Source of the DNA: Macrostomum hystrix
Taxonomy: Eukaryota > Animalia > Platyhelminthes
Assembly (NCBI GenBank): GCA_950097015.1
Contig: CATNEN010000001.1
Coordinates: forward strand, 10,106,001 to 10,170,000
Direction of reading: 5' to 3'
Length of the DNA: 64,000 nt
Shown here: positions 1 to 32,602 of the stretch, piece by piece
Position numbering within the stretch: position 1 is the stretch's first letter
Layout: every line of letters begins with the position of its first letter
Translations under genes and position numbers: made by a program
The notes under the pieces: model-generated
Told to the model about the DNA's origin: nothing
Database searches by the model: none
Seen by the model: the letters and a program-made list of their open reading frames with translations, nothing else

Positions 1-705
1 ATGTAACTTTTATTCGCACCGCATTATGAATGGCACCTTTCTTTATCTTTTTGCTTCGGGTGGGCCTGTGGGGTTCATTTCGGGACAATTTCTATTTTAG
101 GAAGGGTACCAACCCGCTAAAGTGAGCGGGGTGGTATGCATGGGAGTTCTATGTTCATGGAGGGGGGCAGTCATAAATCAAGGAACTGGACGGGCATATA
201 GTAGGACTTAAGGGAAGCTTTTCCATTGGCTCGGAGGGTGGCAGATTTCAAATGGTGGCCTCTATTCTCAGGGAAGTGCGAGGAGAAGGAAGGGACACTT
301 AGTTAGAAAACATGGTTGTTTACAATTAGGGTGAGTCACTGGAACTGCGGGCACTTATGTAAGAACACTGATTTTATGTTTTTCGGGCCAATTAAAAACT
401 TACTGTTATTAGGTGAATGAACTTTAGTGGGCAAGCTCGGGGTGACATGTTGCCTTGTTCTTTTAGAGGTTTCGGAGTTTGAGCAGCAATTGGGAAATAA
501 TCTCAACAAAAAGACAGCAAGGGGTTTAATCGTTATTCAGAATAGATGACGGTGGCTACTCGTTTGTATTAGGTACAGAAAACAACGGTAATTAGAAACT
601 TGAAACGGAAGAAAGGCTGGATAAAGCGGTGAAACTTGTCAAAAATGCAAAATGAGCCAGAGTCAGGTAGTTCTCAGCCGGTAGTCCATGTCTGGACCTT
701 CGCGC

Positions 706-1448
706 CTACGGGCGGAGCCACTTTACCAAGGCCGCGCCGGTGAAGGTGGACAGGCCGGCCACCACCGCAAGGCCAACAGGGCCTGTCATGAGTTTCCGAG
801 CTACGGCTCCGGCATCCTCCGGCTCAAATGGTAGTTCCATATCTGCAGATGGAAGGGGTAGGTTTTGATCACCTTAGCGGGGACTGATAAATGGTTTCTA
901 TGTGGGTAACTCCTAGGTGGTAGTTGTCATTCTGGTAAACTCTCAAATGGTGGCTAGATGTAGTTAAGGCTTCAAAAGGGTGGTTAGCAACTTACGAATA
1001 GCAAGACTCAGGCGCAGGGGCTGCTGCCCGATCGGGGCTCGCGGAGCTGTCGGCGTTTCTCTCTGCGGCAGGTCACCTCTGAAAGTTAGGAAAGTGAAAT
1101 TAGTTGAATTTGTAGTGGCAACCTCCAGAGAGTACGATAATTATGCAATTCAACCTATTCTAAATCTAAAACTTCGGGTTTCAGCGGGCTGTTTGGCCAA
1201 TAGAGTTAGGGCTAGGGCATCTGGGCCCGGGCGGGGATCAAAAATAGGTAAAAACAAGCTGGGTGTGCCGGGGGTCAGGATTAATGTCTATTCTAATAAT
1301 TATGCAATAACTCTCGCAAAACCCCTCAATAACCGGCCTTGGAAGGCCGAGTAGAAGCATAAATGACTCACCCTTCTTCAACAGGCTGCGGCTGGGCGGT
1401 GGCTGGGGCCTCCAGGATGGGCGTGAACGGCCGGGTCGTCACTTGCAT
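706..1448 (-). CDS. Three-exon antisense gene inside LTR-element internal region; 98-aa Pro-rich protein with C-terminal hydrophobic (putative TM) helix
   Basis: Exons 1448-1372, 1078-996, 842-706. Donors GTGAGT and GTAAGT, acceptors ctttcAG and ctgcAG. Frame is kept across both introns: MQVTTRPFTPILEAPATAQPQPVEEGGDLPQRETPTAPRAPIGQQPLRLSLAIHMELPFEPEDAGAVARKLMTGPVGLAVVAGLSTFTGAALVKWLRP*. TATAAAA on the minus strand at 1559-1553. Confidence 0.65.
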
Positions 1449-2301
1449 TTTATCAGTAGATCAAAGCAATAATCAGTAAATAAATGATGGCTCTCTAGGA
1501 GGGTCGTTTAGAAAAGATAGCGGCTTGAGTTAATGGGGCGTCAAGTGTTTGTTTTTATAGCACCTAAGTTTAGGGGTAAAGTGGCGGGAGCGCCAACCAA
1601 TAGGAAGACAGTTGGGAATGTGGGAAATTCCAGCATAGGGGGACCTTAGTGACAGTTTAGTTGTTGGGGCACTGACCTTTACGGTGAAGAGATACCGCGG
1701 CGGCAACAGCATCACAAAGCTGCAGCGCCGATTGGACCGCGCGCAACGGCTAGGCAACCGGCCCGGCGAGCATTTTCGGGCACGGCCAGCCGGAAACACC
1801 TGGAGCGCGCGGCAAATCAGAGGCCACTAACGCCCGGCAACAGGATCGGTGGGGACGCAAACGGGCCAACCAATCTGGAACCACCTGGGGAGAGCACGGC
1901 CGGACCCCTCGGACTCAAGGAAAGACGGCCGGGGCCCCCAGGATTGCGCAACCGAGACCAAGCCGGGCAGGAGAAGATGGGCACAGCTGCAACCACCTGG
2001 AGAAGACGGCGAGCCGGGACTAGGCACACCCCTGGGCATCGAGGAACTCTTTTCGCCGCGGCCAGAATGCGCACCCACCCCCCATAGGACGCTATACCGT
2101 AATCACTAGGGGCGCCGACCATTCTAAACTCTTGCACCAATCTATTTATAGTATCCGTACGTACGTACGCACTAGGATTCTTCTCTAGCGGAATTCTTCT
2201 TAGGGTTCTGTACAGTATGTTGTAGGTAATTATTATACTTTTCCCCTCGATTCTCGAGACACCCCGCTACTACTGTCAGTAGGCACGTAAGTGTCTTACG
2301 T

Positions 2302-2321
2302 GAAAGTGAGCGAAGGTGGAG
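2302..2321 (+). other. Putative polypurine tract before LTR
   Basis: GAAAGTGAGCGAAGGTGGAG directly abuts the TG start of the LTR at 2322. Confidence 0.5.
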
Positions 2322-4652
2322 TGATGTGGAGTGTGCTGCGGGAATGGAGTGGGAATGTGAGCCAGCATAATTTTTCAAATTTTTAAGTATCTAATAATTG
2401 CGACCCACATAGCAGCTGGCCGCAAACAAGATCATTAATCTTAGGGCCGGGTTTGGGGCGGCGGTGAATTAAGTAGCCGTCGAATCCCTTTTCCCTGGAT
2501 CTGTCTAGACCCCTGTAGGAATGAATGATCGCGGCCTTAACTTTTATTGTATGAGTAGTTTAGGTCATAATTCCCCTCCAAACCGCGATCAGATATCGGG
2601 AATCACTCGGGCATTATGAGTGATCATTAATAATTCTTCATGTCCCCACTTCTTTACAGTATTCGAGCCCAGCTCGACTTTATGACCTCCCTCCTTTAGA
2701 TACATGTAAATGTCACTGTAGGCAGGTCAGCGCCTGCGCTTCCCATTGTCCCGGCGGAGTAACAATTATTGGCCGACTGCCGGCGGCTGTTCTCGCAGAA
2801 CATCTGTCGTTTCCCGCCGTCGGTTCATTGGGTAATCGGGGTGGCCCATCGCCGCTTCGATTCCCCGTTGACAGGCTGGCGCGAATGTGGGTTATTTTGA
2901 TGGATGACGAGGTTGGCGTGCTGCAAGACTATTTAAGCAAGCGTGCTGCGCTGCTCCCTCTAGGACCTTCCCGGCGGACTATCTCCGACCTTCTCCCCCG
3001 CCGGACTCACCATTGCCGGGCCAGACTCCCACCGGACCCAGAGCACTTATTCCGGACCCAATTCTCCACATAGGGCTTAGACCCCAGAGCTATAAGCTCA
3101 GATTCAGCGCTCACAGGCCCATTGCCTGTTTCCTTCCCCCTTGTAGCGACAGCCACCTCTTTAAGTGAGCCTTCTAACTGAGCCTTTGAGCTCCTGGTGC
3201 GTTGGCCCCTGCCAGCATCGCAACAAGCTTATCCCTTCTCTGCCTTGCTATTTTTGCCCTGCCTCTCCCCGAGAACTACGGGATTGCAGCACGCGGCCGA
3301 TCGACCTCCGGATAAGTAAACCGCGCAGCGGCTCTTAATTTTTACTCCTAAGGGACCTATTCTCCTAGCTAGGCGGCACAGTAGTGGGAGGGGTATTAGA
3401 ATTTCTAGCCTAATAAACTGGCAACGGTTAGCCAATTAATTTCACATTAGGCAAACTTTAACTACAAATTAAATCCTTTCATTTCGTGTCCGCCTCCACG
3501 TTTATTTTATCTATTAGACAGCCCTCAGATATGAGTGGCTAATCTCCTAGGGGGGTGGGCTCTGGTGATGCCGAGCCGAAGGCTGCGGCAGGAAGACGAC
3601 TGTAAGCGCGCATGAGAGTAATAAGGAGCTAGGGATTCGCGAGTAAAATGCGGGATGTAGTGTGTGCATTGCTGCCTAGTGGCGGGGGATTCCTTGGCCG
3701 GCTTTCCTCGCTCACTGGCGGATTCCAGTGTGCGCGTCAAATCCCTTTGCCAATTGAATTCTCCTACTTTTCCCCGCCTCTCGTGACCGCGGCCATGGGA
3801 GCGAGAGGTGTGATCTAATAATAATCGCTTGCGTGATTACTTAGCCAGTGTTCTGTTTAATCTCTCCAGCCTCTGATTTCCTCATCTCACACAGATTCGG
3901 TTTGTTAGTTGCTTAATGTGTAGGCTGCAGTCTAATGTAAAGAATGTGTCTGATGTTTCATGAGTAGGATTCCGGCTATGGATTCTCATTCGAGTTCTTA
4001 GTACTACCTTTCTAGACCCCTGTAGCGCGAATTCAGGAATCCCCTTTTGAGGCGTGTCTCGATCCATTCTGGAGTTCTTCCCCCAGTCTAAAACGGAAGT
4101 TGCAGAATGCCCTATTTTTCGGCTTGTCTAGATCTGCGTGATAAACTAGGAGCTGTGTACTCCGGGGACCCAAGTTCCCAAATGCCTGCGGTGGCAACGT
4201 AGGCGCATTGGGTGGTGGCGCTACCCTCGATCAACTATCCGCTTTGCCGATAGCCTTTCCGCAGTTCTGTGACAGGAGCCTAGGCCGATTCGACCACCGC
4301 TACCAAGGTTAGGAGTCAGTTGCGCACGCACTACTGACGACAGTAGACTAGTTAGCCCTGTCCTGTCCGATTCCGGGCAGTCCTACACCCCTCCTTAGAC
4401 TTTTAGCCGGTTTCGAGCACTGCTTGGGGTAGGCACGGCAGTCATGCCTGTGGCCTATGGGACGAGTGGGACTGGACAGCCTGAGGCCGATAGGACCACT
4501 CCCTGCATCCGCTGAACCTCCCTTCATCTCCTCTCTCTCTCCGCGAAATCTCGCGTGTAGCCAAGCGGTCATTTAAGTCGACTCTGTCGCCCGCCCTAGG
4601 AATTGTCTCCCATGAGTGCAGGTCAGCGCTTGCAAAAGACCCTCCCACTTCA
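2322..4652 (+). mobile_element. Long LTR (~2.33 kb), copy 1, probably the 3' LTR of an element extending left of the window
   Basis: Starts TGATGTGGAG and ends CCCACTTCA. Reverse-complement homology over its length to 21972-24336 and 49581-51922. Preceded by a PPT-like tract; no TSD (GGAG vs CCCG). Confidence 0.85.
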
Positions 4653-4820
4653 CCCGCATCATTAAGCAGGGTTGGTGACATAATAGCTTCGGCTCATTTT
4701 CATTCCTTCTCGCACGACCCCCAGTCGTGACCCGTGCTTTCCTTCGCTCTTTTCCCCCATTGTTGCTTTAGCGACAACCCCCCTTTTTTCGCAAAATCCT
4801 CGTACCTCTTTTGGCCGAAA

Positions 4821-5879
4821 ATGTCCGACCAGGAGGACGAGGTGGTGGAGGCGGTCGGAACTGGCCGCCCACCTAGAGGCCGCGCCGCAGCAGCGGCGCG
4901 CGCCGAACCCCCAGCGGCTGCTGCAGCACAGCAAGCCGACCCTCTAGAGCGTCTAGCGCTGCTTTTAGAGCGCATTGAATTGCGGCGACCCCGGCACCCT
5001 CGGGTCAAAATCGCCATCGAACCCTATGAATCCCAAAAAGACTCCTTCCCCCTCTGGCTGCGCCGCTTCAGCCTGAAGCTGGAGGCGGAAGGCCTAGAAA
5101 CCGAGGAGGAAAGGATCCTGACCCTCCTGGCCCATTTGGGAGGCGAGCCCCTCACCGAGGCGATGGCCCTGCTCCGCCGTGGGACTTATGCTAGATTTGT
5201 GCAGGAGCTGACCGAGGCCCTCAGTGGCGCCTGCACCCCCTACGCCCGACTCCTGAGTGGGCGGAATCTGAAGCAGGGGCGGGACGAAACGTACGCCTCG
5301 TTCGCAGATCGGCTGAGGACCGCCGCCCTGCAGGCCACCCTCAACGGCCATGGCGTGCACTTTGAACGCGCCCTTTTGGCCTCCTTCATGGAGGGCATTG
5401 TGGCCACCCCGGAAGTCCTGGCGCCCATCATGAGGATGGAGTTTGCCACGGCGGAGGACGCGGCAGCCGAACTGCGTGCCGCCACGCAGGCCCACGAGAT
5501 GGCTGTCGAGCGCGACCCTCGCCGACGGGTGCGCCTGGTCAGAGCGGAGCCCGACGAAGGGCAGGGCCAGCCGGAGCCGCAGCACCGGCCGACGGAAGAA
5601 CTAGTCAGGGTGACCCAGCAGCTAGCTGAGATTGTTCAGCAGCTGCGGGAAGCCAAACCCAACCCCATCCCCCCGCTCTGCCCGCATCCAACCGGGCACC
5701 AGTGGCACCCTACGCGCTCAGGACACGGAGCCGCTAGGGAGGCGAACGTTGAGTCGGCTAAGGGAAATGGGAACGGGGCCGCCAACTGGAGGCAGGCCAA
5801 CGGCTCCGCGACCCAGCCCGCAGCCCGACCGTCGGAGCGGCGGCACCCGCTGCCTCCGCCCACCGAAAAGTCCGAGTAA
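4821..5879 (+). CDS. gag: Ty3/Gypsy-type Gag-like protein
   Basis: First ATG at 4821 (MSDQEDE). Capsid-like motifs: PYESQKDSFPLWLRRF, LLAHLGGE, LKQGRDETYASFADRL. Confidence 0.85.
   Translation: MSDQEDEVVEAVGTGRPPRGRAAAAARAEPPAAAAAQQADPLERLALLLERIELRRPRHPRVKIAIEPYESQKDSFPLWLRRFSLKLEAEGLETEEERILTLLAHLGGEPLTEAMALLRRGTYARFVQELTEALSGACTPYARLLSGRNLKQGRDETYASFADRLRTAALQATLNGHGVHFERALLASFMEGIVATPEVLAPIMRMEFATAEDAAAELRAATQAHEMAVERDPRRRVRLVRAEPDEGQGQPEPQHRPTEELVRVTQQLAEIVQQLREAKPNPIPPLCPHPTGHQWHPTRSGHGAAREANVESAKGNGNGAANWRQANGSATQPAARPSERRHPLPPPTEKSE
5762..5807 (+). other. -1 programmed ribosomal frameshift signal (gag to protease)
   Basis: G GGA AAT heptamer in the gag frame at 5762-5768, 6-nt spacer, then stem GGGGCCG(5775-5781)/CGGCTCC(5801-5807). 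The -1 frame opens right after TAA 5759-5761 and stays open into the protease. Confidence 0.75.
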
Positions 5880-6313
5880 ATTCACTCGGCCGAGTCCCCA
5901 CCCAAGTGCGCACCCGCCCCAATCGCTCTGAGAAGCTTAGTGAGGTGTGGGTAGCCTTGGAGGTGGACGGGGCACCCCTTGACCTCCTGATCGACACTGG
6001 GTCAATGGTGAATGTGCTCCCGGGCTCGTTGTCATCAATCTTCCAGCATTTCCCATTTGAACCCCCCCCCCAATTTTCGCTAATTGCTTATAATGGCACA
6101 CCGATCATTGCACTATCGCAAGTCAAGATCAAGTTACAGGTTGGCGCCGAAGCACTGGACACGCTATTCCTAGTGGTCGAGGGCGACTCCTCTCCCCTGC
6201 TAGGCGCCTCCTGGTTGGCTCACCATCATGCCATCCTGGATTTTGACTCGCGTCAATTAATCATCTACAGCCAATCTATCCCTTTCTCGCTCAGGCGGAG
6301 GCCTGCTCTTTAG
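5762..6313 (+). CDS. Retropepsin (aspartic protease), -1 frame of gag; no RT/RH/IN follows
   Basis: LLIDTGSMVNV catalytic motif and PLLGASWL; stop TAG at 6311-6313. Confidence 0.85.
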   Translation, partial: GKWERGRQLEAGQRLRDPARSPTVGAAAPAASAHRKVRVNSLGRVPTQVRTRPNRSEKLSEVWVALEVDGAPLDLLIDTGSMVNVLPGSLSSIFQHFPFEPPPQFSLIAYNGTPIIALSQVKIKLQVGAEALDTLFLVVEGDSSPLLGASWLAHHHAILDFDSRQLIIYSQSIPFSLRRRPAL

Positions 6314-6459
6314 GGTCGAGGAACCCCCTCTCTTCCCATTTCCCTCCCCCTCCCCTTCTCTTTCCCCCCTTCCCCCCCTTTGATACTATTTAGAGGAAGA
6401 GCCGCAAGCGTAGCGAAAGATGGTCATTTCATTCCTAGCGAAGGGCATCTACCTCAGTC

Positions 6460-6711
6460 ATGGCTAGCTTTGGCACCGTTCTGGCGTGGTGGCTGGAAGT
6501 GGCCGCCACGGATTATCGCCGCGAACTGGCAGGAAAAAGGACCTGGCTGATGGTCCGCCTGTGGCTGCTGCCCCTGTTGGGACGAGCGGCCCAAGCAGGC
6601 GTCGACCTCGCCCTTGCCTGCCAGCTGGCAGAATCTAGGTGGCTGGCCCAGGCGTGGTGCGAGGAGCGGGACCCTCTGCCGCCTAGGGGAGAGGCTAATT
6701 TAAATGGCTAA
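6460..6711 (+). CDS. Small Trp/Leu-rich ORF downstream of protease, function unknown
   Basis: ATG in gtcATGG context; preceded by a pyrimidine tract (6325-6380) and tttAG at ~6393; GC-rich like the gag-PR unit. Confidence 0.3.
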   Translation: MASFGTVLAWWLEVAATDYRRELAGKRTWLMVRLWLLPLLGRAAQAGVDLALACQLAESRWLAQAWCEERDPLPPRGEANLNG

Positions 6712-7149
6712 AAATAATAAGTTCTTCAGCTATTAACATATTCAACATTATTGAACAGGTACTTATCACACTAGCTGGAATGGTGGCATTGTTGACTGGC
6801 TTAAGGCAGTACTGCCTAGCAACTGCTTTCCTTACATCAGTGCATCTGAGAACTGGTCACATTGTAAGTACTTGACTAATCATGATCCTTTTGTGAAATA
6901 CTTGAAACCTAACCCACAATTGATAGCTACTAGCTTTTTGAGCCATTGGTTTGGATAATGTGTACAGGTTCAGTTTGTCTAAAAATGTGCTATGCATGCA
7001 TTTTTTTAACTCAAAAGCTTACTAAACATAGACTACTTTTGTATGTCAGACCCTAAAGTGTCATAAAAATTATAGCCATTCACTAGCTATTGACAGCTGT
7101 TGGTACTAGCTAGGGTTATTTGGTCTGCTGCATTCACGTGAGACAATTT

Positions 7150-10489: not shown

Positions 10490-11017
10490 TTAGATACCAC
10501 TACAGCCTCTTCTATGTCGTGCCAGATTCGTTGCCGCCTGTGTCCGACCGCAATCCGGGCACGGAACGCGTCTGCTGCGGTAGATTCTGGCGACGTTTTC
10601 GACCAACTGCGTTTGGCCCTCGGTGTTGTTCATGGTCGCTTGCGGCCCGTGCTTTTGTGCGCATTTGATCCAGTGTCTCGCGAAGTTGCTGCTGCTAATC
10701 CACTTCCCGCAGCCGACGCAGTTCTTACGGCCGTCGATCTGGGGGGCTCCCCGGCACCACTTTTGGTGGTTCTTCCTGGTTGCTTCTGATTTGAAAGTCC
10801 TCTCGCATTTGTGGCAGGGGAGGGAGACTGCGGCGACGGAGTGATGTAGGCGTCTGCAGTGGATGGCCAGTCCGCCCCTGGATGCGCATATTTTGTTACA
10901 GCCTTCATACTTGCAATGGTACCCTGTTAGTTCGTTCTCTTGGGTATCCTCGGTCCCGTGGGGGGTGTTTCGTTTCGTTGGTCCCCCGCTGTTGTCGTGT
11001 TGTTGCCGCGTTTGCAT
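10490..11017 (-). CDS. C-terminal C2H2/C2HC zinc-finger segment of the LINE, in a shifted frame
   Basis: Four fingers: CKYEGC..HCRRLH, CHKC..HQKWC, CVGC..HWIKC, CPDC..HRRGC. Confidence 0.75.
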   Translation of the reverse strand: MQTRQQHDNSGGPTKRNTPHGTEDTQENELTGYHCKYEGCNKICASRGGLAIHCRRLHHSVAAVSLPCHKCERTFKSEATRKNHQKWCRGAPQIDGRKNCVGCGKWISSSNFARHWIKCAQKHGPQATMNNTEGQTQLVENVARIYRSRRVPCPDCGRTQAATNLARHRRGCSGI

Positions 11018-14000
11018 TTCAACGCCTCTTGGGTGGTGAGCTGGCGCCGTCGCTTTTCACACAGTGTCTTCCATGCTTTGCGGTCCTGGGCCAGTCTATT
11101 AATGTCCAGTTCGTCGATTTTCGCTGTCCTCAGCATCTTCTTCCAGAAGGACATGATCGTTTGCTTTCGTTTGCGTGCTTTGCGGACTGATTCCAACTCC
11201 TTGTTCCAGCCGAGAAGGCACGCCTTTGCGATGTTTTCGTCGGGCAACCGGATGACATGGCCCAGACGTCGCCAATGGGCCATTTCGACCTTTGTCTCGA
11301 CGCTTGCAATTCCGAGTTCTTGGCGGATGTCCCAGCTGTTGACTCCTTTCTCTTCCATTTCGCGCAGGGTCGGTTGCTGTTTATTGCTCCAGATCCTACG
11401 GTAGATGCGGTCTACTGCCTGTTGCATCCTTCTTGTTTCGGATCGATGGAAGGGTCTGGCCCCGCAGTTGAACAACATGGTGCTCTCGACGCACGTCTCT
11501 ACGATCTTGGCTTGGGTCTTCTTGCTCAACCGGGTTCGGCGCATCATGTTTTTCACCCCGCCCCAGGCTTTTGCTGCTCTCTGAAGGCGTTGGCTGGTGT
11601 CGTTCTTCCGGCCGAGCCAGGTTCCCAACATGCGGATGTTTTCGCTTTCTCCGGTGCCCAATTTGGCGTGCTCCTCCTTCTCGTCGTTCGTTCTCTCTTC
11701 GAACATCCCCATGACCTCTTTGATGGTGGAGGTGCCCTGCTCAATTTCCGCCGTCGTGCCGATCACCGTAGTGTCGTCCGCAAAAAGGGAGCACGTGATC
11801 GCAATTACTGATGTTTCCTCGTTGATGACTCCCATTCTCTGGGGGGGGAGGCTGTGACCTGAGCGCACTGTCCAGCGGATTCCGTACTGTTCTCCGGTCT
11901 CCACTGTCCGTTTGCGGCGCTCGATCTCTGCGAGGCGGATCACTGCTTGGTGAAAAATATTGAAGAGCACCGGTGATGTGGCACATCCTTCACGAAGTCC
12001 TCTCTGGGGGTAGAAAGGTGAACTCTCTTCTTTGTCGCTTACTACCTTGTAGGCGGTGGCTTCATGCAGGTCCTGTAGCTTGCTGATGATGGTCTTCGGC
12101 ATGCTGTAATGTTTCAGTAGTTGCCACAGCGCGGGCTTATTAACGCGAGGATACGCTTTTTTTAAGTCGAGGAGCGTGATGCTCGTGCAAAGGCCCTCAT
12201 GAAACTGCGGGCTGTCCCTGAGTTTGCCTGCATCTTCGTTGAGTCGCCAGAGTATTTGTGTGGCATCCATGGTTGAGCGTCCACTTCGAAAACCAGCCTG
12301 GTTCTCGTCCAGGATCCCGACTGATTCCGCCCATTCGCTGATCCTGGTTGCTAGTATTCGGGCGAGGATGCGACTGACGAGCGGGAGTAGGCAGATCCCT
12401 CGGTAGTTATTGAGGTTCCCTCTGTCTCCTTTCTTGAAGAGTGGTAAGACCAGGCCAGTTTTTTGGGCTTCACTCCATTCCTCCGCGTCAGTGTGCCAGA
12501 GGCGCTGGATCTCTTTGATCAGTTCACCCTTGGCTCTGTCGCAGGCGTCTCGGATGTAGCGAACGCGCACTCCATCTTCGCCTGGGGCACCGTCTTTGAT
12601 TTTTCGGATTTCCCCCTCAATTTCCCCATCCGTAAGCGGTCGGGCGAGTTTCACGTTGGCTTCTTTGGTGTGGTTACTGTCCGGTTTAGCCATGGTAGCA
12701 ATCAACTCAGTGATTTTGGCGGGGTCGTTCTCGAAACGATCAGCCTGAATAGTCGCCAGGTGTTCTTTAAACTCTTCCGCCGAGAAAAGTGGGACACTCG
12801 AGCTGTTGTTGCTGTTCCTTTTGCTGGCTCTTCCCATTCGTTTCAGGCAGTCGTACATTCCGCCTGTGTTCCCTCGTTCGCAGTGGTCCTTACATTCTTC
12901 CGCGATGCTGGTCCACCAATCGTCCTCCCATCCTTGAACGCGATCTTTTTGATTTTTTCGATGTTCTTTAAGGCGTTTGCGAGCCTCTTCGATGTTAGCA
13001 CGACTCTCTGGTGTGCTCTCTCTCCGGTCTATTGTGATCGCTCTATTCCGTTCCGCTAACGTGTTTGCAATCGCTTTGTTCAGCTCTTTCAACTCATCTT
13101 CGTGGCCGATCATCCAACTGTTCGTTTCTCTGGTCTTAATTCCGCAAGTGTCTTGGGCCGCTTCTATCAGTTTCTCCTCGACCGTGCGCCAGCAAACCTT
13201 CTGGTGTGCTCCGGTTTCCGTGTTTTTATTGCCGATTTCGAGTAGCTTGTGTTCCGTGGCTTTGCGGTACTCTTCTTTCACGACAGGGTCCCGGAGTTTC
13301 TCCCAGGCGATTTGTTTTTTACGGTTCCTCGCTCTCCGCTCGTGTTGTCGGTCGGTGTCGCAGGTCGTCAGGCATCCTTGGCGGAGGTTGAGTACCTTTG
13401 GTAGGTGGTCAGAGAGCTTAGCTTTGGAGTGGTCTGTGTGGATCTTTCGCAGCATCATATGGCGTTTATCCGCCTCTAGGAAAAAACCGTCGAGTTCATA
13501 CCATCGGCCCGTATTCGGGTTTCTCCAGGTGCCAGGTTTCTTTTGGGCGTAATATGAGCTGGCCCAGACCATGCCGATGCTCTCGGTCCAGGTGAGGAGG
13601 TCTCTGCCCTGGGTGTTGGTGGGCGGGCCACCTGGGTTGGTCTTGCCGTAGTTTGTGAAAACGTTTTGTGCGTCCGATCCCATGCTGGCGTTCCAGTCGC
13701 CGCCGATTATTGCCAGGGTGCTGTGGTGCTTGGACGTCAGCAGTCGTTCCACTTCGGTTCTGATGTCTTCAATGTCTTCCTCGTATCCGTGACTACCCTT
13801 GACGGGTTGGTAGACGACGATGAGGAGTAGGTTGTTGAATTCCAAAGCTAACGATCTCTTTTGCGGGTGGGATCTCCGCCCACTGGCTGTCCATCTGTGC
13901 CAGGCCGTGTTGTTCAGGAGTATCCCAACTTTTTGCGAGAAAAACAGGAACATGTCTTCGCCTCGGACGTGGTACTTGCGGACACCGGTGCTGGTGGTGT

Positions 14001-14409
14001 TGAGTTCGGTGAGAAGAGTGATGTCCCATTCCTTTGATGCTTCTTTCACAATTTCACCGAAACGTCCCGAGAAGATGTTTGCTCTCTGGGTGTTCCATGT
14101 GGCAATTCGTAGTTTCTGTGTCTTCCAGTAGGTTTCGGCCCTGTTCTGGTTTACGGAGGCTCGAGTTTCTCGGATGTGACACCTTTTCAGTTTCCTTCGT
14201 TGTCGTCTGGCAGTTCTCTGCGCCTCCGTTTTCGGGCCCGGGTTCTTTTCAATAGTGCGCAAAGCGACTCTGATCTCGGCTTCGACATTTCTTCTGTCTC
14301 TCACCGTTTTCGCTCTCTTTTTTTTATTTTCGTCGTTTGTGTCTTTTTTTGTTGATTTTTGGTTGATATTTTTTCTTTCTCTTTTCCTTCCGCTCCCGTT
14401 CCGGTTCTT
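10927..14409 (-). CDS. APE endonuclease-reverse transcriptase polyprotein (no upstream AUG; 2A-like motif near N-terminus)
   Basis: IATWN, GDWNA, SDH endonuclease motifs; NYRGICLL, QAGFR, GLREGC, LFADD RT motifs. Frame open from 14409. Confidence 0.92.
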   Translation of the reverse strand, partial: KNRNGSGRKRERKNINQKSTKKDTNDENKKKRAKTVRDRRNVEAEIRVALRTIEKNPGPKTEAQRTARRQRRKLKRCHIRETRASVNQNRAETYWKTQKLRIATWNTQRANIFSGRFGEIVKEASKEWDITLLTELNTTSTGVRKYHVRGEDMFLFFSQKVGILLNNTAWHRWTASGRRSHPQKRSLALEFNNLLLIVVYQPVKGSHGYEEDIEDIRTEVERLLTSKHHSTLAIIGGDWNASMGSDAQNVFTNYGKTNPGGPPTNTQGRDLLTWTESIGMVWASSYYAQKKPGTWRNPNTGRWYELDGFFLEADKRHMMLRKIHTDHSKAKLSDHLPKVLNLRQGCLTTCDTDRQHERRARNRKKQIAWEKLRDPVVKEEYRKATEHKLLEIGNKNTETGAHQKVCWRTVEEKLIEAAQDTCGIKTRETNSWMIGHEDELKELNKAIANTLAERNRAITIDRRESTPESRANIEEARKRLKEHRKNQKDRVQGWEDDWWTSIAEECKDHCERGNTGGMYDCLKRMGRASKRNSNNSSSVPLFSAEEFKEHLATIQADRFENDPAKITELIATMAKPDSNHTKEANVKLARPLTDGEIEGEIRKIKDGAPGEDGVRVRYIRDACDRAKGELIKEIQRLWHTDAEEWSEAQKTGLVLPLFKKGDRGNLNNYRGICLLPLVSRILARILATRISEWAESVGILDENQAGFRSGRSTMDATQILWRLNEDAGKLRDSPQFHEGLCTSITLLDLKKAYPRVNKPALWQLLKHYSMPKTIISKLQDLHEATAYKVVSDKEESSPFYPQRGLREGCATSPVLFNIFHQAVIRLAEIERRKRTVETGEQYGIRWTVRSGHSLPPQRMGVINEETSVIAITCSLFADDTTVIGTTAEIEQGTSTIKEVMGMFEERTNDEKEEHAKLGTGESENIRMLGTWLGRKNDTSQRLQRAAKAWGGVKNMMRRTRLSKKTQAKIVETCVESTMLFNCGARPFHRSETRRMQQAVDRIYRRIWSNKQQPTLREMEEKGVNSWDIRQELGIASVETKVEMAHWRRLGHVIRLPDENIAKACLLGWNKELESVRKARKRKQTIMSFWKKMLRTAKIDELDINRLAQDRKAWKTLCEKRRRQLTTQEALKCKRGNNTTTAGDQRNETPPTGPRIPKRTN

Positions 14410-18405: not shown

Positions 18406-20890
18406 TCTTCTTCCATCCATCCAACTATACTAAATCTCTAAAGTCTGTCTGTCTGTCTGTCTGTCTGTGGAATTTCGATACACAGGCTAAATGCCTCAAC
18501 CAAATTTGATCGCGTTTTTTGCTAAACATGCCAAATTTTACTGGCATGAGACCTTGAAAATTTCGTTAGTCTGCTTCAATGCTAACAATATTAAATATTC
18601 GAAAAACTAGTTTTCCTATTGCTTTCAATAGGAGGCCAAACAAGGTTAAATTAGAATAGGGCCGGACACTGTCAGCTTTATTAGATTGCATCGATGCTTT
18701 TTCTCGCCCGCGCGTGCATTGGTATAGCACTGAACAGGGCCTGATACTCTCAATTGAATAGGATTGCGTCACTGCTTTTCGACCCGTACGTACGTTCAGC
18801 CAAGATAAATTTGTCTCTTGGCTGATCGAGTGATTTGATTTGAATACGCAAACCGTACATAGCAGATTTCATGATTGGGCTTTTATGATGCTCAATGCTA
18901 GCGAGACCTCTCCTCCTCCTTTCTATCCATAAAACTGCAGCCTTTCTATTGTCAAACCTTGTCTCGACTTCGATCATTGTGCCGCTTTATTTTCATCTAG
19001 CTCCGAAGTAAAGTACTTTTATTATTTTGCAGAATGCAGATCCAAATTCAGCATCAGCTTTGTTACTGCTTCTTATTCTTCAAATCTTCTATCATCAACA
19101 GTTAAAAACGTAAGTTACTGTTTATTAGTCTTTTTTATTGGCAATTTTTTTTGTTCGAGTATAAATAATAAGCGCTTTTGGTTAGCTACTGTCGAAGCAG
19201 ATATTACTGTACTCGCTCTCAGAAAAGAATATAAGTATTTTCGAGTGAAGCAGCAAGTTTTATTCAATACTAAGACTAAGGAAAGAGTTTTTGAGCATAG
19301 CTGCAGGCGTTATCAGATTCAGAACTGCAACAAAAAATATTTTATTTATGTGTGTATCTTTGTTTGTATGTTTGCAATCAAACTATCTTCCGAACGGCTC
19401 AACCGATTTTCAAAATTCCTTCACCAAAATAGTCAAATGGTCCCGAATCAGTACATGTATTTTTATTAAGCTTAATTCCATTGCCAAGGGGATTAAATAT
19501 TCGAAAAACATGATTTTTTCAAAGGTCAAACCATCTTTGACCTTGGTTTGACCAATTATACACGTATTTTTATTAAGCTTAACTTTATTGCTAAGGGGAT
19601 TAAATATTCGAAAAACATGATTTTTCAAAGGTCAAACCATCTTGGCCTATTGAGAATTTTATACTCACTGCCACTGAATTAGAATTGCATCGTCAAATTG
19701 CGCAACAACCCCTAGCTGATTGAATTTGAAGCCTGCACTCTGGAGACAAATTTTAAATAAATGTACACAACCAACCGCGAGACTGAGTGTACTCTATTTT
19801 CTTACTTCATTGTACAAAGCCAGAACTTTGAGAATTCATTTTATAAGGCTGATTTTTGTACCCACTAATCAACAGTCGGAATAGCTTATGTGTAGGCAAT
19901 AGGAATAGGTTAGGCTAGGCTAGGGTTCGATTCTGCACTGCGTCAAATCATTTAGACTAATTGTCAGCCAGTAGTGACTGAAGAATATTTTTATTCATTT
20001 TTTTCATTTTGTAACTAAAATATCATGAAAATATCATAAATCATAGCAAACCTGAGTTTAAATCATGGCAAAAATAGAGTTTAAATCATAGCAAACCAGA
20101 GCTTGAATCATAGAGAAACCAGCGTCTGAATCATGGCTAAACCAGAGCTCGAATCATAGAGAAACCAGCGTCTGAATCATGGAATCATGGAGATTTTATT
20201 AGTGTCATCGCCTAGCATATCTGCAGTTAATTGGCTGTGGCCACTTTGGCTAAAAGGTCTTAGAAGTTCAGTGTGAAAGCGCCAGTCAATAAAAACGAAT
20301 TAAATCCGTTCCCGCCTTGACCATTTAACTGCTCGTGTTGGAGAGAATTTGGAGTCAGTGTACATATAGTATGTACACGAATGGGGTGTCCAGCCTTTGG
20401 GGGCGACTTCGCTGAGTATAAGATGTTTACTTGTATAGCTTTCTTATCTTGACCATTCTCCTCCTTCCAATTCTATCAATATTTTGATATCTTTCAATTT
20501 AGCTTTAGCATTAACTTTGTATTCTCATTTTTCTCATTTTCTCATCTCATTTTTAGTATAGTGGATTCTAAGATGGTTCGACGTGGCGCCAGCGCTTTAA
20601 AGAAGAGCAGAGATGCCAAAAAGAAACGTCAGCAAGAGACCGCTGATCAGCGAGAGGAGAGGCTTGCTGGACTCCGGCAGCAGAAGGCTCAGCGGACGGC
20701 CATGGAAACTGACGCTCAGCGAGCAGAGCGGCTGGCTGGACTCCGGCAGCACGAGACTGAGCGCAGGGCCAGGGAAACTGACGCTCAGCGAGAAGAGCGT
20801 CTGGAAGGACTGAGGCTGCGAGACGCCGAGAGGAGAGCCCAGGAAGGCGAAGCAGACGCAGAAGTGCGTAGAGCGGGACTGAGAACTCAG

Positions 20891-23800
20891 TGGCAGATAG
20901 GCGAACAAAGGAAAAGGAAATGAGGAGAGAGAAAGAGGGATTGGGGCCCTGGCTAGCCTCGCTTCTAGCCTTGGCTACTGACAACTGCTTGCGCGCACTT
21001 AAGTTTGGGACATAGAAGTGTAGGTTTTAACTTAGCGCTCGTTCTGCAACCCTATAGCGAACTGTTACACTATAGGTACGGCGGGGTCAGTACTACTGCG
21101 GGCTCGCGCCTGCGGCAGCCTATCACCCTACCTTAGAAAGTACACGACTCACTTAGGATGCCCAGAAAAGAGACAGTCCCCGGTGCTCGGCGAGTCATCG
21201 ATTCCCAGCTGCATTGCTGGGGGCTCCCCTCGCTCGGTTAGAAGGCCATAGGGACATTGCCCGGACCCTCGTTTAGACCACCCCTCAAAGAATCTCCTAG
21301 GAAACCGTGCCGACCGAATTCTAGCCCATGCTTAAAGTAGGCAGCTTCGAGAGGCGGGCACGGGTGCTGCTAGGCTCCCACAAAGTCCCACCTCCCTAAC
21401 TGTTCCCCACCTAAGTTAGACTTGGTCAAAGCTACGTGGCACTTTCAGAATCAGATACATGTAAGCAGGCCCTGCATGCTGCCCAAGAGAACCAATCCCC
21501 GGTGCTCGGCGAGTCATCGATTCCCGGCTGCATTGCCGGGGGCTCCCCTCGCTCGGTTAGAAGGACATAGGGCATTGCCCGGTCCCTCGTTAAGAATGGC
21601 CCCTTCCAGAATAGTCACGCGGGCAACCCCACAGACAGTCCCTGACTCCTGCAGCAGCCACATAACCCGAAGACACTCTAGCATGAAGTCCGCTCACACA
21701 GCCTACTCATAGAAGAAAGTCACTAATCAAAATTTTTAAAATTCCAACAAAAACTAAATTAAATTGAAATCAAATTGCAACTGTCCGGAAATTAATTGAC
21801 AGTCACTAGAACTGAGATTCACTATTTAGAGATAAGATTTAGGCATACGGAAAATGAAACCTAGAAGGGGCCCTTTCGGCCAGCTACCACAGAAATCTGC
21901 GGCGCTAAACTAACAATTGAAATTCAAGTTCGTTTCGCGCCCTTTCTAGATCCCACCCCGGTGCCACCATTTGAAATGGGTGGGTGTTTTGCAAGCCGAT
22001 GACCGCCCTGGTGAAAGATAGGAGTGTGGAGAAAAGATGATAGAGTCGAAGGTCGATCGCGTAGCTGCCCGCGAGTTGTCGCGGAGAGGGATGAGACGAA
22101 GGGAGGTATGAAGGGAGAGATGAAGGGGGAGATGAGGCGGTACAAAGGATGCAGGGAGTGGTCCTATTGGCCTCAGGCTGGCCAGTGCCACTCGTCCCAT
22201 AGGCCACAGGCATGACTGACGTTCCTACCCCTAGCAATGCTCGAAACCGGCTAAAAGTCTAAAGTGAGGTGTCGGACTATCCGTAATCGGTTAGGACAGG
22301 GCTAGAGAGCCTACTGTCGTCAGTAGCATGCAAATAACTGACTCCTAAACTTGGTAGCGGTGGTCGAAACGGCCCAGGCTCTTGTCACAGAAATGCGGAA
22401 AGGCTATTGGCAAAGCGGAAAATGATCTCGGGTAGCGCCACCACCCAATGCGCCTACGTTGCCACCGCAGACATTTGGGAACTTGGGTCCCCGGAGTACA
22501 CAGCTCCCAGTTCATCACACAGATCTAGACAAGCCGAAAAATAGGGCATTCTGCAACTTCCGTTTTAGACTGGGGTGAGAGCCCCAGAATGGATCGAGAC
22601 ACGCCTCAACAGGGGATTCCTGAATTCGCGCTACAGGGGTCTAGAAAGGTGGTACTAGTAACTCGAATGAAAATCCATAGCCAGAATCCTACTCATGAAA
22701 CATCAGACACATTCCGTACATTAGACTGCAGCCTACACATTAAGTAACTAACAAATCCGAATCTGTGTGAGATGAGGAAATCAGAGGCTGGAGAGATTAA
22801 GCAGAACACTGGCTGAGTGATTATGCAAGCGATGATTATTAGATCACACCTCTCGCTCCCATGGCCGCGGTTACGAGAGGCGGGGAATAGAAGGAGAATT
22901 CAATTGGCAAAGGAGTTTGACGCGCACACTGGAATCCGCCAGTGAGTGAGGAAAGCCGGCCAAGGAATTCCCCGCCCCTAGGCAGCAATGCACACGCTAC
23001 ATTCCGCATTTTACTCGCAAATCCCTAGCTCCTTATTACTCTCATGCGCGCCTACAGTTGTCTTCCTGCCGCAGCTTTCAGCTCGGCATCACCAGAGCCC
23101 ACCCCCTGAGAGTTTAGCCACTGATCTCTGAGGGCTGTCTAACAGATAAAATAAACATGGAGAATAAAGCAGAGAGGATTTAAATCGTTATTAAAGATTG
23201 GCCTATGATCAATAGATTTGGCGATGGTTGTGCTAATTTATTAAGCCAAAAGTCCTAGTGCCCTTGTCCCACTAAAGTGCCGCCTAGTTAAAGAAAAGTC
23301 CCTTAGGATTAACAATTACAAAACCGCTGCGCGGGTTACTTATCAGAGCGCCGGCTGGCCGCGTGCTGCAGTCCCGTCGTTCTCGGGGGAAGGGCAGGGC
23401 AAAAATAGCAGGCGGAGAAAGGATAAACTAAAATGAGCTGGCAGGGGCCAACACACCGGTGGAGCTCTAAGGCTCAATTTGAGGGCTCACCTAAAGAGGT
23501 GGCTTGCGCTACTAATGGATGGGGAGCAGGCAATGAGCCTGTGAGCGCTTGTCTGAGCTTATAGCTCTAGGGTCTGAGCCCTAAGTGGAGGGATTGGATT
23601 CGGAGTAAGTCTTGGGTCCGGAGGTGAGTTTCCCGAAGGAAAACGGGTCCGGTCCAGCAGGGGGGGTAAAGGTGGTGGTCCGGGTCCTAGAGGGAGCGGC
23701 GCAGCGCGCTTGCTTAAATAGTCCTGCAGCACGCCAACCTCGACATTCATCAAAATAACCCACATTCGCGCCAGCCTGTCATCGAGGAAGCGAAGCGGCG

Positions 23801-24336
23801 ATGGCCACCCCGATTACCCAATGAACCAGCGGCGAGAAACGACAGATGCTCCTTCACGAGCAGCCGCCGACAGTCGGCCAATAATTGTTACTCCGCCAGG
23901 ACAATGGGAAGCGCAGGCGCCGACCTGCCTATAGTGACATTTACATGTATCTAAGAGAGGAGGTCATAAAGTCGGGCTGGGCTCGAATACTGTAAAGAAG
24001 TGGGGACATGAAGAATTAATGATCACTCATAATGCCCGAGTGATTCCCAATATCACCTTGCCCGAGTGATCGCGGTTTGGAGGGGAATTATGACCTAGAA
24101 TACTCATACAATAAAAGCTATGGCCGCGATCAGTCATTCCTACAGGGGTCTAGACAGATCCAGGGAAAAGGGATTCGACGGCTACTTAATTCACCGCCGC
24201 CCAAAACCCGGCCCTAAGATTAATGATCTTGTTTGTGGCCAGCTGCTAGGTGGGTCGCGATTATTGATTGCCTAAAAATTTGAAAAATTCCGCTGGCTCG
24301 CATTCCCACTCGATTCCCGCAGCACACTCCACATCA
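20891..24336 (-). mobile_element. Truncated LTR element: 5' LTR (21972-24336), PBS and ~1 kb leader, inserted in Helitron 1
   Basis: LTR copy 2 on the minus strand; left boundary approximate; no TSD found; ~100-bp direct repeat at ~21180 and ~21500. Confidence 0.8.
21950..21969 (-). other. Primer-binding site, tRNA-Leu-like
   Basis: TTCA|A TGGTGGCACCGGGGTGGGAT immediately after the LTR; resembles the tRNA-Leu PBS TGGTGGCAGCGGTGGGAT with a small bulge. Confidence 0.7.
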
Positions 24337-27300
24337 GGGTACTGTTTGAATTTTGATGCTTCCGTCCTGTGCTTCTGCTTGAATTAGATGATTATTAGAT
24401 AAAAATGTATAATCGATTAAATTGTAAATGGATTTACAATTAGTAATATGATGAATATTCATTAGTTTAGACTTGTTATATACAAATTCCCATATTTCAG
24501 GCCTGGTAATGATGAGCTGGCGACACCGGCTGTGGTGCTACCTTTTGGTAGCTTGCGCATTATCCCAATTCCTGGGGATGGGAACTGCTTTTTTCATGCA
24601 GTGTGACCAGTTGCTGGGCACTCCGCTTGAGACCGATGCGGCCTCCCTAAGGCATGAGCTGACATGCCGTGCAGTGCAGGTAATGCCAGAACTGGTTGAA
24701 GCAGGCTTTGTTTTCTCTGAAAATGCTGATGCCATTATTAATGCGTCTTTTGCTGAGGGCACAGATGTGCCTGGTGAAATTGTTCCACTTTTAAGCCGCT
24801 GTTTCAATATTGACCTTGTCATCTATCAAGCAAATGGCAGCGTACTGCAGCACTGCGTGTCTTCTGTGCAACCACCCATTGCAGTTGTGCGCATTCTTTT
24901 GCGCCATGAGCACTATGAGTCACTACGAATTGCTAACCCACTGCCAGTGCCTGAGCCCATTGCAGATGCAGAGTTGCCAAGAGCAGAGCAGACTGCAGGA
25001 CATGCTGATGAAGAGCCTGCTCAAATGGGGTAATGCCTATAGGCTATAATAATTGGCACGATGCAGGGGTACGATAAGTTAAAAGATCACCGCTTATGTA
25101 TCGTTCAAACTGTCTTCATTCACAGGCCCAACAGGATGGCGAGGCCAGAGGCGCCGGCCCATGACTGCGGCCCAATGGACAGGGCATGTGATCAATGCAG
25201 TGCTCTGGTCTGGCGCATGGAGACCAGGGATTTCTGCTGCGCCAAAGGCAAAGTGAAGCTGCCCACCCGGACTGTGCCTCAGGTCCTGGCTGATCTGTAC
25301 GTGGGGCGGCACAGCATGAGTGCAGAGTTCCTGGCCAACATCAGGAGCTACAATTGTGCACTGCACCTGACATCGCTAGGTGCGAAAGTGCGGTTGGTGC
25401 TAGGCTGGAGCCTCAGCTTCATCATCAGTGGTGAGTTGTATCACAACATGGTGGCTCTGTTTCCAGCAGGTTCAGATCTGCCACAGGGCTGGCAGGTGTA
25501 TTTTACTGACAATCAAATTGAAAGTCGCATGATTCTCTCTCAGAAGGTGAGGCCCGAGCTACTGAAGCTGTTGCAGGCTCTGCTTCAGGAGTGCAACAGC
25601 TATGTGCGCAGCTTGAAGGCTGCAGCCCAGCGGATTGAAGAGGATCCGAGACTGGTGCATGCGCGAATTGTGATTCATCCAGACCGGCGACCTTCTGGTG
25701 AACACATTCGATGAGTGGGGTTAAAGATTTTGCCCATTGGCTTATTATGGATTTTTCTTGATGCAAGCGACAAGTTGATAGGCTGTCTTTATTTTTACAG
25801 ATTTTAACTACATACCCATGTTTTTGCATTTCCCATTCTGAACCAGGCGCTACAATCTGCCGACTGCTAACGAGGTCGGCATCCTGATTGTCGAGGACGA
25901 TGAGAATGCGCCGACTAGCCGTGATGTGGTGATCCAATTGCGGGGTGGCGGTGTCAGGCGTATCAGTAACAGGCACCGCTCATATGACCCTGTAGAGTAT
26001 GTGCTGCTGTTCCCGAATGGCGAGGACGGCTGGCACCCGGAGCTCCTCATGAGCAATGGCGGCAAGCTGACGCCCATGAAGTTCTATGCGAGCGAAATCA
26101 TGGTGCGGCCGGGCCAGCTGAGTCTGCTGCACTATGGCCGCAGGCTGTTCCAGCAGTACCTGGTGGACATGTGCGCCAAGATTGAGTCAGAGAGGCTGCT
26201 CTATCTGCGGACCCATCAGAGCGACCTGCGCAGTGAGACGTACAGCGGTCTGCGAGACGCTCTATTCGCTGCTGATGGCAGGTCGACCGACACAAATCCG
26301 ACAGATATTGGCAAGCCTGCGCACGTGTTACTGTCCTCCAGCTTCGTTGGCGGGCCAAGGTACCTGATGGAGAGGCTTCAAGACGCAATGACCTGTGTGC
26401 ACAAGTTCGGTAAGCCGGACCTGTTTGTCACGGCCACGAGCAACCCGAAGTGGCCAGAGATCAGTGCACAGCTGCTGCCTGGACAGCGGCCCGAAGACAG
26501 GCCGGACATTGTCACGCGAGTGTTTGAGCTGAAGAAGAAGGCTTTGCTGGCCGAGCTCAGAAAGCGCTTTGGCAAGGAGGCCGCTCACGTGTGCTCTCTG
26601 GAGTACCAGTTTAAAATGTGATGAAATATGTTTATAGTTTTTTACAGCTGCTTTATGTTCTCAAATACCCAGGTCTCCCCCATGTGCACTCTCTGATCTG
26701 GCTTGTGAACGGACACCGAGTGACTCCGGACCGCTACGATGCGATCGTGTCCGCGGAGATCCCCGACCCAGAGCAGCAGCCGGTGCTGTACGAGCTGGTG
26801 AAGACGCACATGATCCATGGACCGTGTGGCAAGGAGAACCCAGCCTGCGCCTGCATGGAGAATGGCGTGTGCAGCAAGGGCTTCCCGAAGGAGTTCCAGC
26901 AGGTGACTCTGACCAGTGAGACTGGATATCCGCTGTATCGGAGGCGCTCTCCAGAGATGGGTGGCTTTACAGTGGACAAACTGTTCAAAGGTCGCAGCAT
27001 TCGAATGGACAACAGGTGAGTTACGATGCCATGTCACTCATGTATGCTGTTAATTAATGTTTAAAGATGAACCAATTTTTCTATACTTTCTGTGCTGATT
27101 TTACTATTCTGCCTTACTTGAACGTGCTTTCGTATATTATGCTGCTTAATTTTATCCTATGCCTTTACCCATCGCAGGTGGGTTGTGCCCTACAGCCCGG
27201 TCCTGTTGCTCCAGTTCGCATGCCACATGAACGTTGAAGTTTGTGCCACTGTGAAGTCGGTCAAGTACGTGATCAAGTACTTGCTGAAGGGCGGCGACAT

Positions 27301-29397
27301 GGCGACGTTCAAAGTCGACGCCAACAAAAGTTCGAGCGAGCCGAGCGTGCAGACTGCGGGGCCGGCTCAAAATGCTGCGGCGAATCAGGAGCCGCGAGAT
27401 GAGATCAAGGAGTACCTGTCTGCGCGCTACATTGGCCCAATGGAAGCCGTGAATACCATTTTCGGCTTGGAAGTAATTAATATTTCTATTTTGTTGGTTT
27501 ATGGAAAGCATAGCTGGAAATATTTAGCTCGCATATTACTTATTCGCTACATGAGCAGTTTGCTGAGATTCGTCATGTGAATAGCAATTAAAGATGACAC
27601 CTCATTTTTTTTAACTCCCCCAGGTGCACAACAGGTATCCGCCAGTCATTCGACTGTGCGTGCACAAGTCGGAGGAGCAGCTCGTGTATTTCAACGAGCA
27701 GACTGCGGGCGCCAGAGCAAAGGCACCGAAGGACTCGACGTTGACGGCCTTCTTCAAGCTGTGCCGCACCGACGAGTTTGCGGACGGCTTGTGGACGGCT
27801 CGGGCAGCCTTCACTTCCTGGATGCGCCCGCTGGGACTGGCAAGACCTTCCTGCTGGAGGTTCTGCTGGCCTTCGTGCGCAGTCGGGGTGAGGTGGCCCT
27901 TGCCGTTGCGGCGTCTGGAATCGCAGCGACCCTGCTGCCAGGCGGCCAGACGGCGCATTCCACGTGAGTTGCGATCTGACAGCAGAGTTTGAGTCCTCTG
28001 ATTCCATGCCTTCAGCATACTCACTGAACTCAATAATCCCACCAGATTCAAGATCCCAATTCGAGTGCTTCGCTCCAGCAAGGACGTTTGCTCTGTCGGA
28101 GCGCAGTCGAAGCAAGCCGCGGTGTTTCGGAGTGTCCGTCTAATCGTTTGGGACGAGATCTCCATGACGAACCGGCAAGACCTGGAAGCTGTGGACCGGT
28201 GTCTGCGAGACGTGCGCAAGCAAAATGTGCCATTCGGTGGAGTGGTTCTCGTGCGCGCTGGAGATTTCCGCCAGCTGCTGCCAGTCGTAGTGAACGGGAC
28301 CAGAGCCAACAATGTCCTGGCGTGCGTGAGCAGATCCCCGCTGTGGAAACTGTTCCAGCGGCATCGCTTGACAAAGAACATCCGACTGCAGAGCAGTTCC
28401 GACCCTGCATTGTACCAGAGGTACACGGAACTACTCATGCAGGTGAGTGTATGGTCCCTTGAATTGAATCATTGCTCCTTTAAATACAGCTCTCATTGCG
28501 ATAGTTGTGTCTATGGCATCAAATGCTTCAACCCTCCCAGATCGGATCCGGTAGGATCGAGCAGGATGCGGAGGAGAACGTTTGCCTTCCTGCTGAGATT
28601 CTCATTCCTGCTGAGGGTGCGCTGACTGACCTGATCAAGTTCGTGTACCCATCGTTTGAGGCGTCGGGCGAGAGAGACGGCTACTTTGTGAGCCGAGCCA
28701 TCCTGGCGCCGTACAATGACTCAGTTGATGTGATCAATGAGACGTACCTGGGTATGTTCCCTGGCAGCTTGCGTGAGTACCGATCGATTGACAGTATTGC
28801 TGATGATGATGCCGCAACTCACTTTCCTCCTGAACTGCTCAACCAACTGGATGCCCCAAACTTCCCCAAGCACTTGCTGAGGTTGAAAGTGGGCATGCCG
28901 GTGGTTCTGTTGCGCAATTTGAATCCCCCCCGTTTATGCACGAGGCTGATCGTACTCGCGATGGGCGACAATGTGCTGCGCTGCAGGATTGCCGCCGGCC
29001 AGTTCACGGGAGACGAGATCCTGCTGCCGCGAATCCCGTTGATTCCTAGCAATGCGGACTTGCCAGTCTGCTTTAAGCGGCTGCAGTTTCCGGTGAAGCC
29101 GAGCTTCTGCCTTACAATACACAAAGCACAAAGACAATCCCTCGAGACCGTCGGCGTCGACCTGGCTGTCGGCTGCTTCACGCATGGCCAGCTGTACACG
29201 GCGCTGTCACGAGCGAAGAATGCGGCCAATATCCGAGTCCGAGTGTCGGGGGCCAGGACAAGGAATGTCGTTTTCCCCGAGGTGCTCACTGGCGACTAGC
29301 CGGTTATTGAACCAGTCGTACGTGAGTTCATGACAGTGCTGTTAAGTGTCTGTGATGAATATGATGAATGAATGAATGATAAGTATCTGTGTTTAAT

Positions 29398-32430: not shown

Positions 32431-32602
32431 GGCTGGATATGGGATACGGGAATGTGGAGGCAGGAGTAATTTAGTTCCTTACATTACCAATTACTATTAC
32501 TTACTAATTATTAAATACTATAAAATGATTTCGATAGTAATATTGATTGTCTATTTGAACGTTTATTTACATCACTTTACACTGCTTTTCAGATTAATTG
32601 CA

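Follow-up and report, generated by a model that had tools for sequence, protein, structure and literature searches.

At the start of the window, which is the whole 64,000-nt stretch of Macrostomum hystrix DNA that was analysed, a candidate three-exon gene lies on the minus strand within positions 706-1560. It is followed, on the plus strand, by a polypurine-tract-like run and a 2.33-kb long terminal repeat (LTR A). Three copies of this LTR occur in the window and are 81-87% identical to each other. The coordinates of the LTRs, of the gene and of the motifs around it are collected in Table 1.

Table 1. Features of the antisense gene, its surroundings and the 2.33-kb LTR family (positions in the window)
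Feature	Position	Strand	Remarks
LTR A	2322..4652	+	2331 nt, TG...CA; 86.5% and 80.9% identity to the other two copies
LTR copy B	24336-21972	-	followed by AA, a TGG primer-site-like run and a leader of ~1.07 kb
LTR copy C, solo	51922-49581	-	4-bp target duplication GCAA
Polypurine-tract-like run	2302..2321	+	17/20 purines; reached at 0.56% of window positions
Coding exon 1	1372..1448	-	77 nt; ATG with A at -3
Intron 1	1079..1371	-	293 nt; GTGAGT...TTTCAG; branch-like CTAAC, pyrimidine tract; phase 2
Coding exon 2	996..1078	-	83 nt
Intron 2	843..995	-	153 nt; GTAAGT...CTGCAG; phase 1
Coding exon 3 and stop codon	706..842	-	137 nt
Predicted promoter	1553..1601	-	CCAAT box (ATTGG, 1601), GC box (1588), TATA box (1559-1553)
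Possible third intron	117..403	-	287 nt, GTAAGT...TTTAG; 3' region, downstream of the stop
Poly(A)-like signals	530 (ATTAAA), 14 (AATAAA)	-	sequence motif
GC-rich block	1690..2150	-	three CAGGTG boxes, CCAAT-type motifs, second TATA at 2150
Predicted C-terminal membrane helix	724..777	-	residues 76-93, then a 5-residue tail, charge +2
PTAP codons	1042..1053	-	residues 35-38, exon 2, inside PxxPxxP; P(T/S)AP late-domain match

The initial annotation had described three GC-rich exons that consensus splice sites join into a 98-residue reading frame, with a TATA box ~110 nt upstream. Both points were reproduced. When the four GT/AG combinations near the junctions were tried, only the pairing 1372/1078 with 996/842 read the 98 amino acids, and TATAAAA is found at 1559, 111 nt before the ATG. 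The GC content is 0.63-0.68 in the exons and 0.44 in the introns. GTRAGT donors are few on the minus strand of 1-2321, three in all (1371, 995 and 403), and the gene takes two of them, along with two of the five strong acceptors on this strand. The motifs at 1553-1601 are what we take to be CCAAT, GC and TATA boxes of a promoter, and no ATG lies between 1570 and the start codon at 1448. The antisense gene is very probably real, with its splicing predicted from the DNA sequence. The antisense transcript could also include an upstream non-coding exon, joined through a weak donor at 1677 and an acceptor near 1497. The 101-codon ORF in the GC-rich block has a non-coding score (-0.079).

The three LTR copies differ in their surroundings. 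Copy B is read as a 5' LTR because the primer-site-like run and the leader follow it. The primer site looks like a tRNA-Leu type, a likeness left unsupported by a comparison with prokaryotic tRNA ends, in which the one match was due to chance and no tRNA was identified. Together with the purine tract, the side on which copy B has its primer site places the family in the plus orientation at LTR A. The 20 nt ahead of the LTR contain 17 purines in copy A, and 10 and 14 in the other two copies. At its other end, LTR A stops exactly at the aligned CA, and the sequence beyond it is unlike the leader of copy B. LTR A is flanked by GGAG (5') and CCCG (3'), the latter as annotated initially, and shows neither a target duplication nor a primer site after it. 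These sequence features make LTR A most likely a 3' LTR, whose element would have inserted 168 nt before the gag of another one. Its reading as the 5' LTR of the downstream gag also fits, as a sense-oriented gag ORF begins 168 nt past it, but this would require a deletion beginning precisely at the LTR end and a purine run present by coincidence. The length of the LTR, the 4-bp duplication and the apparent Leu-type primer site are only suggestive of an affinity to the Gmr1/Osvaldo-type, long-LTR Ty3/gypsy elements.

Several observations on this family stand by themselves. The leader of copy B is ORF-poor and holds two 110-nt repeats (21168-21277 and 21485-21595; 92%). Copy B and its leader (~20900-24336, minus strand) sit inside a Helitron gene, between its STPR-coding part and a part that we presume to be OTU-like, and no 3' LTR accompanies them. 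The flank of copy C at 51923-52411 has a 489-nt exact duplicate at 56499-56987. A conserved antisense ORF within the LTR itself was considered and dropped, as an alignment of the three copies, read by eye, has frame-breaking indels.

The product of the antisense gene has a simple layout. Residues 1-75 are rich in Pro, Ala, Thr and Gln, and the only hydrophobic stretch is C-terminal, at residues ~76-93 (GRAVY 1.93, or 1.46-1.75 with wider bounds; the Kyte-Doolittle score over 19 residues peaks at 1.75, at residue 75). An equally strong hydrophobic stretch appeared in the last 30 residues in 30 of 5000 residue shuffles. Modelled from its single sequence, exon 3 is predicted to form two helices, the second of which spans 22 residues (exon-3 residues 21-42, mean pLDDT 85) and stops 2 residues short of the C-terminus. 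The protein is thus predicted to be tail-anchored, with a single C-terminal helix and none elsewhere, which upholds, as a prediction, the earlier reading of a tail-anchored-like protein with a Pro-rich N-terminus. Mammalian tail-anchored proteins have mean tail charges of 0.2 in the ER, 1.1 in mitochondria, 2.5 when shared between mitochondria and peroxisomes, and 6.0 in peroxisomes (PMC5450235). With its +2 tail and its short, moderately hydrophobic helix, the antisense protein comes near both the mitochondrial and the shared class. The Pro-rich arm contains PTAP, a match to the P(S/T)AP late motif that binds TSG101 of ESCRT-I (PMC2172688). This motif was spotted post hoc and arises in 2713 of 100,000 composition shuffles (2.7%); in the long frames of the window it occurs once, in a total of 26,307 residues. 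The nearby gag, which may be that of another element, has no PTAP, PSAP, PPxY or YPxnL.

Searches for homologues covered exon 3 (44 of the 98 residues) and, in Pfam, also the exon 1 frame. Exon 3 had none of 210 candidates at E<=10 in a 5.8-billion library (lengths 78-2000), no match in the PDB, none of 11 BFVD fold matches at E<=0.001, and a best ESM Atlas value of 0.85, at low recognition. Neither exon 3 nor the exon 1 frame matched Pfam. The 55-aa exon-3 frame was confirmed in none of 599 candidates from metagenome contigs and none of 330 from viral contigs; the LTR start motif was found 0 times in metagenomes, and Rfam had no match on 1-7000. A single phmmer match of exon 3 in a 1.84-billion library was rejected, its score being added up from 11 weak matches of 12/29 along a protein with tandem repeats. 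These blanks weigh little because the downstream gag of the window likewise has no sequence relatives among those searched, nor has its protease; ESM Atlas rates this gag as Gag-like at 0.90-0.92.

Should LTR A be a 3' LTR, the sequence in front of it would be element-internal, and we think that the antisense gene probably is part of the LTR element. The initial annotation had placed the gene antisense and just upstream of the polypurine tract and 3' LTR. The orientation and the 3'-like character of the LTR stand, but "just" does not, for the ATG is 874 nt from LTR A and a GC-rich block (~1690-2130) lies between them. Membership leans on one purine run and on elimination, since neither pol nor a 5' LTR nor another copy lies within reach: 1-2321 has no second copy in the 64-kb window, its plus strand has no stop-free frame above 144 codons and no pol or other element ORF, and no pol of the 2.33-kb LTR family was found in the window. 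Composition offers a further, weak indication. The trinucleotide signature of 1-2321 correlates with those of the LTRs and the copy B leader at r 0.58-0.76 and with those of seven other regions at 0.03-0.27. This signature is non-specific, as 57-59 kb (the Helitron 5' region) reaches 0.63 and 6.7-10.3 kb reaches 0.51; among 2-kb bins, 58001-60000 scores 0.70 and 1-2000 scores 0.72.

The most durable alternative is a small, lineage-specific host gene with a tail-anchored product, for example of the mitochondrial outer membrane, that lies beside an element that has been truncated, or beside a solo LTR left by recombination and lacking a target duplication. The Pol II-type promoter motifs, the introns and the poly(A)-like signals would look ordinary in such a gene, its tail features suit organelle targeting, and 1-2321 is both single-copy in the window and free of pol and other element ORFs. 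In addition, truncated copies are common in this family (the internal part of copy B is only ~1.07 kb), so that the 3' part of the element could end before 1560. Against this, a purine tract that few window positions equal abuts the LTR, the far side of LTR A has a clean CA junction, and the composition of 1-2321 is closer, weakly, to that of the LTR family. Recognisable host genes are also absent from the other ORFs scanned: a Pfam scan of 73 ORFs (8 + 65), picked from 217 frames of at least 75 aa in the window, returned no host gene family. Strong matches were all to transposon families, and the neighbourhood is therefore transposon-packed. We regard a host gene as possible but unlikely. If the gene were the host's own, it would be one more orphan micro-gene and of limited general interest.

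On balance we lean towards an intact antisense gene in the 3' internal region of the element, encoding a 98-residue tail-anchored protein for which ESCRT recruitment via PTAP is the most plausible use. Transcription of the gene along the minus strand would start from an internal promoter. Its introns would survive retrotransposition since the genomic RNA is the other strand, an argument drawn from the retroelement cycle: reverse transcription would copy the strand on which none of them are introns. The protein would insert post-translationally by its tail, while its unstructured Pro-rich arm would stay cytosolic and bind TSG101, and the capsids of the element would then bud into vesicles without Env. 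Hepatitis E virus ORF3 offers a functional analogy. Like the antisense protein, ORF3 is a small, membrane-bound accessory protein with P(S/T)AP, and it needs its PSAP for the membrane-wrapped release of a non-enveloped virus (PMC8472430; late domains in general, PMC8402826). The function of ORF3 is demonstrated, whereas here there is a motif match, and no sequence relation is expected.

If the gene belongs to the element, a role as ESCRT adaptor is the single most likely function, yet as a motif match it remains doubtful. The searches gave no homologue to support any function, and a mitochondria-like tail would be a poor fit to budding at endosomes or the plasma membrane. The wider scenario, an Env-less animal LTR element whose antisense, spliced, tail-anchored ESCRT adaptor supplies the late domain in trans, so that capsids are membrane-wrapped and pass from cell to cell, is a long shot. 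Retroviruses, in contrast, carry the late domain within Gag. If true, the adaptor would be a third infectivity route beside Env and the sORF2/FAST proteins, and such a route would be open to a worm that rebuilds its germline from somatic stem cells. If the PTAP works, an envelope-less element would have a new exit route from cells.

An element gene could instead have a regulatory role: its antisense RNA might base-pair with the genomic RNA or enter small-RNA silencing, and the protein might modulate the membrane of an organelle or be incidental. For LTR elements, a way of action of antisense transcripts may be through double-stranded RNA (PMC7264820), and HTLV-1 hbz is active both as RNA and as protein (PMC10186651). 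The likely third intron past the stop and the second upstream TATA also hint at a longer, more complex antisense RNA. The codon use and the ordered Pro-rich and hydrophobic layout nevertheless point to selection on the protein, and we consider a regulatory role improbable. The antisense accessory genes described from LTR retrotransposons encode nuclear or DNA-binding proteins and come from plants and fungi. A membrane micro-protein in the antisense slot of an animal element would broaden the known cargo, with a gene as small as 98 codons, one motif and one helix.

Nested insertions abound in this window (copy B within a Helitron, LTR A before a gag), and the gene might accordingly be a passenger of this copy only, either a captured or nested accessory gene of another mobile element or transduced host DNA. 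Repeat scans, however, gave no terminal repeats or duplication around 1-2321, and captured genes usually have the sense orientation (PMC7264820), which makes a passenger very improbable.

The gene model itself was set against chance. A mechanical three-exon finder returned a single model on the minus strand of 1-2321, the antisense gene, with 0 models on its plus strand and 0 on both strands of 2322-64000 (61.7 kb). Any model of at least 60 aa appeared in 0 of 2000 whole-region dinucleotide shuffles and in 3 of 2000 shuffles within 60-nt blocks, and a model with the exon/intron GC contrast in 0 of 2000, counts that are optimistic because the finder thresholds were chosen with the gene already in view. 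A codon model trained on 4040 codons from 13 transposon ORFs of the window scored the spliced frame at 0.166 bits per codon and the off-frames at -0.30 and -0.28; none of 500 stop-free shuffles matched the spliced-frame score. GC steps placed blind came within 2, 12, 4, 15, 11 and 29 nt of the six exon boundaries, a rough match, and acceptor 2 shows no GC step. Some boundaries are thus poorly matched, the finder criteria were fixed post hoc and the model has no homologue and is known from sequence alone, but the shuffles, the codon score above all 500 nulls and the lack of any other model in the window leave an accidental line-up of splice-like words in GC-mosaic DNA scarcely credible.

ORFs that lie antisense between pol and the 3' LTR (aORF-3R) form a known class, which includes gene23 of maize Grande, rice RIRE2, TRP28 of Retand and brtn of Botrytis Boty (PMC7264820, PMC11963269). 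Antisense TRP28 ORFs occur in 97% of Retand clusters (PMC11963269), and in Grande, gene23 is transcribed from its own promoter and encodes a nuclear protein (PMC7264820). Our gene resembles this class in being antisense, in probably lying in a long 3' internal region and, over the exons searched, in having no similarity to proteins outside the element. It lies upstream of the purine tract and the likely 3' LTR, and the window holds no pol of this family. Like gene23, it may have an upstream promoter, for which it shows the motifs. It differs in that the aORF-3R described in these sources are plant or fungal and nuclear or DNA-binding, whereas ours is an animal gene with two introns and a predicted tail-anchored micro-protein. 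Boty brtn presumably also has introns. Among the papers listed in searches of the open-access literature, none describes an animal LTR retrotransposon whose antisense accessory gene is spliced or encodes a tail-anchored protein. The claim of an undescribed accessory micro-protein is therefore narrowed: the layout is known, and the tail-anchored cargo is without precedent among the papers listed.

The sORF2/FAST-like proteins of MDG1-group insect LTR elements carry MGxxxS/T, an ectodomain of 10-50 residues and a polybasic flank (at least three K/R), and come from an unspliced transcript (bioRxiv 10.1101/2025.03.14.642691). As small (63-107 aa), single-helix membrane accessory proteins of Env-less LTR elements, they are akin to our protein. 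However, sORF2 lies on an unspliced LTR-to-LTR transcript and has its helix in the middle, between an ectodomain that is N-myristoylated and a cytoplasmic flank that is polybasic, whereas the antisense protein begins with MQ, has 75 residues before its helix and two K/R in its 5-residue tail, and comes from an antisense gene with two introns. The proposed link to the small proteins that replace Env in insect gypsy elements thus fails, as a claim of membership, on the absence of MGxxxS/T, the C-terminal helix, the antisense orientation and the splicing.

HTLV-1 hbz and HIV-1 asp are likewise antisense; hbz is spliced, and ASP is membrane-bound with PxxPxxP (PMC10186651). They are driven by TATA-less promoters within the 3' LTR, whereas here the TATA lies ~760 nt into the probable internal region (PMC10186651 for the former). 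Bdelloid Vesta elements show that short membrane accessory ORFs occur in invertebrate LTR elements (PMC5408684). Vesta ORF3 has 220-230 aa and two helices, and the available part of this source describes spliced messages and names no antisense coding ORF or intron (PMC5408684). No closer case appears in the available parts of PMC5408684, PMC13524379, PMC8220671, PMC8365987 and PMC3286476. LTR elements make up 21% of the genome of M. lignano (PMC5730564), and 137 LTR families have been catalogued in it (PMC12801592).

Other elements of the window deserve mention. Downstream of LTR A, gag (4821-5879) overlaps protease (to 6313) on the plus strand, and the in-frame heptamer G GGA AAT at 5762-5768 is probably where a -1 frameshift takes place. 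Farther on comes an 83-codon ORF rich in Trp and Leu (6460-6711), with a pyrimidine tract and AG ahead of it near 6392; this ORF has a strongly coding-like score of 0.316, no Pfam match and a low-confidence three-helix model. No reverse transcriptase follows gag-protease within 4821-6711, and this region could represent a non-autonomous element that carries gag, protease and a small ORF reached by splicing. A 152-codon frame at 53870-54328 (plus strand) has no Pfam match; by eye we take it to resemble an OB-fold fragment.

A LINE at 10490-14409 (minus strand) encodes endonuclease and reverse transcriptase in a 1160-codon frame, the end of which is overlapped by a C-terminal zinc-finger frame. 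Two related, intron-containing Helitrons with STPR repeats lie at 19553-29300 and 57833-64000 (plus strand) and are 70-90% identical in blocks. Within 29385-46008, a KDZ (Kyakuja-Dileera-Zisupton) transposase with a CxC1 domain (34053-37092) is flanked by inverted arms that are at least 2.3 kb long, nearly perfect complements of each other and rich in tandem repeats.
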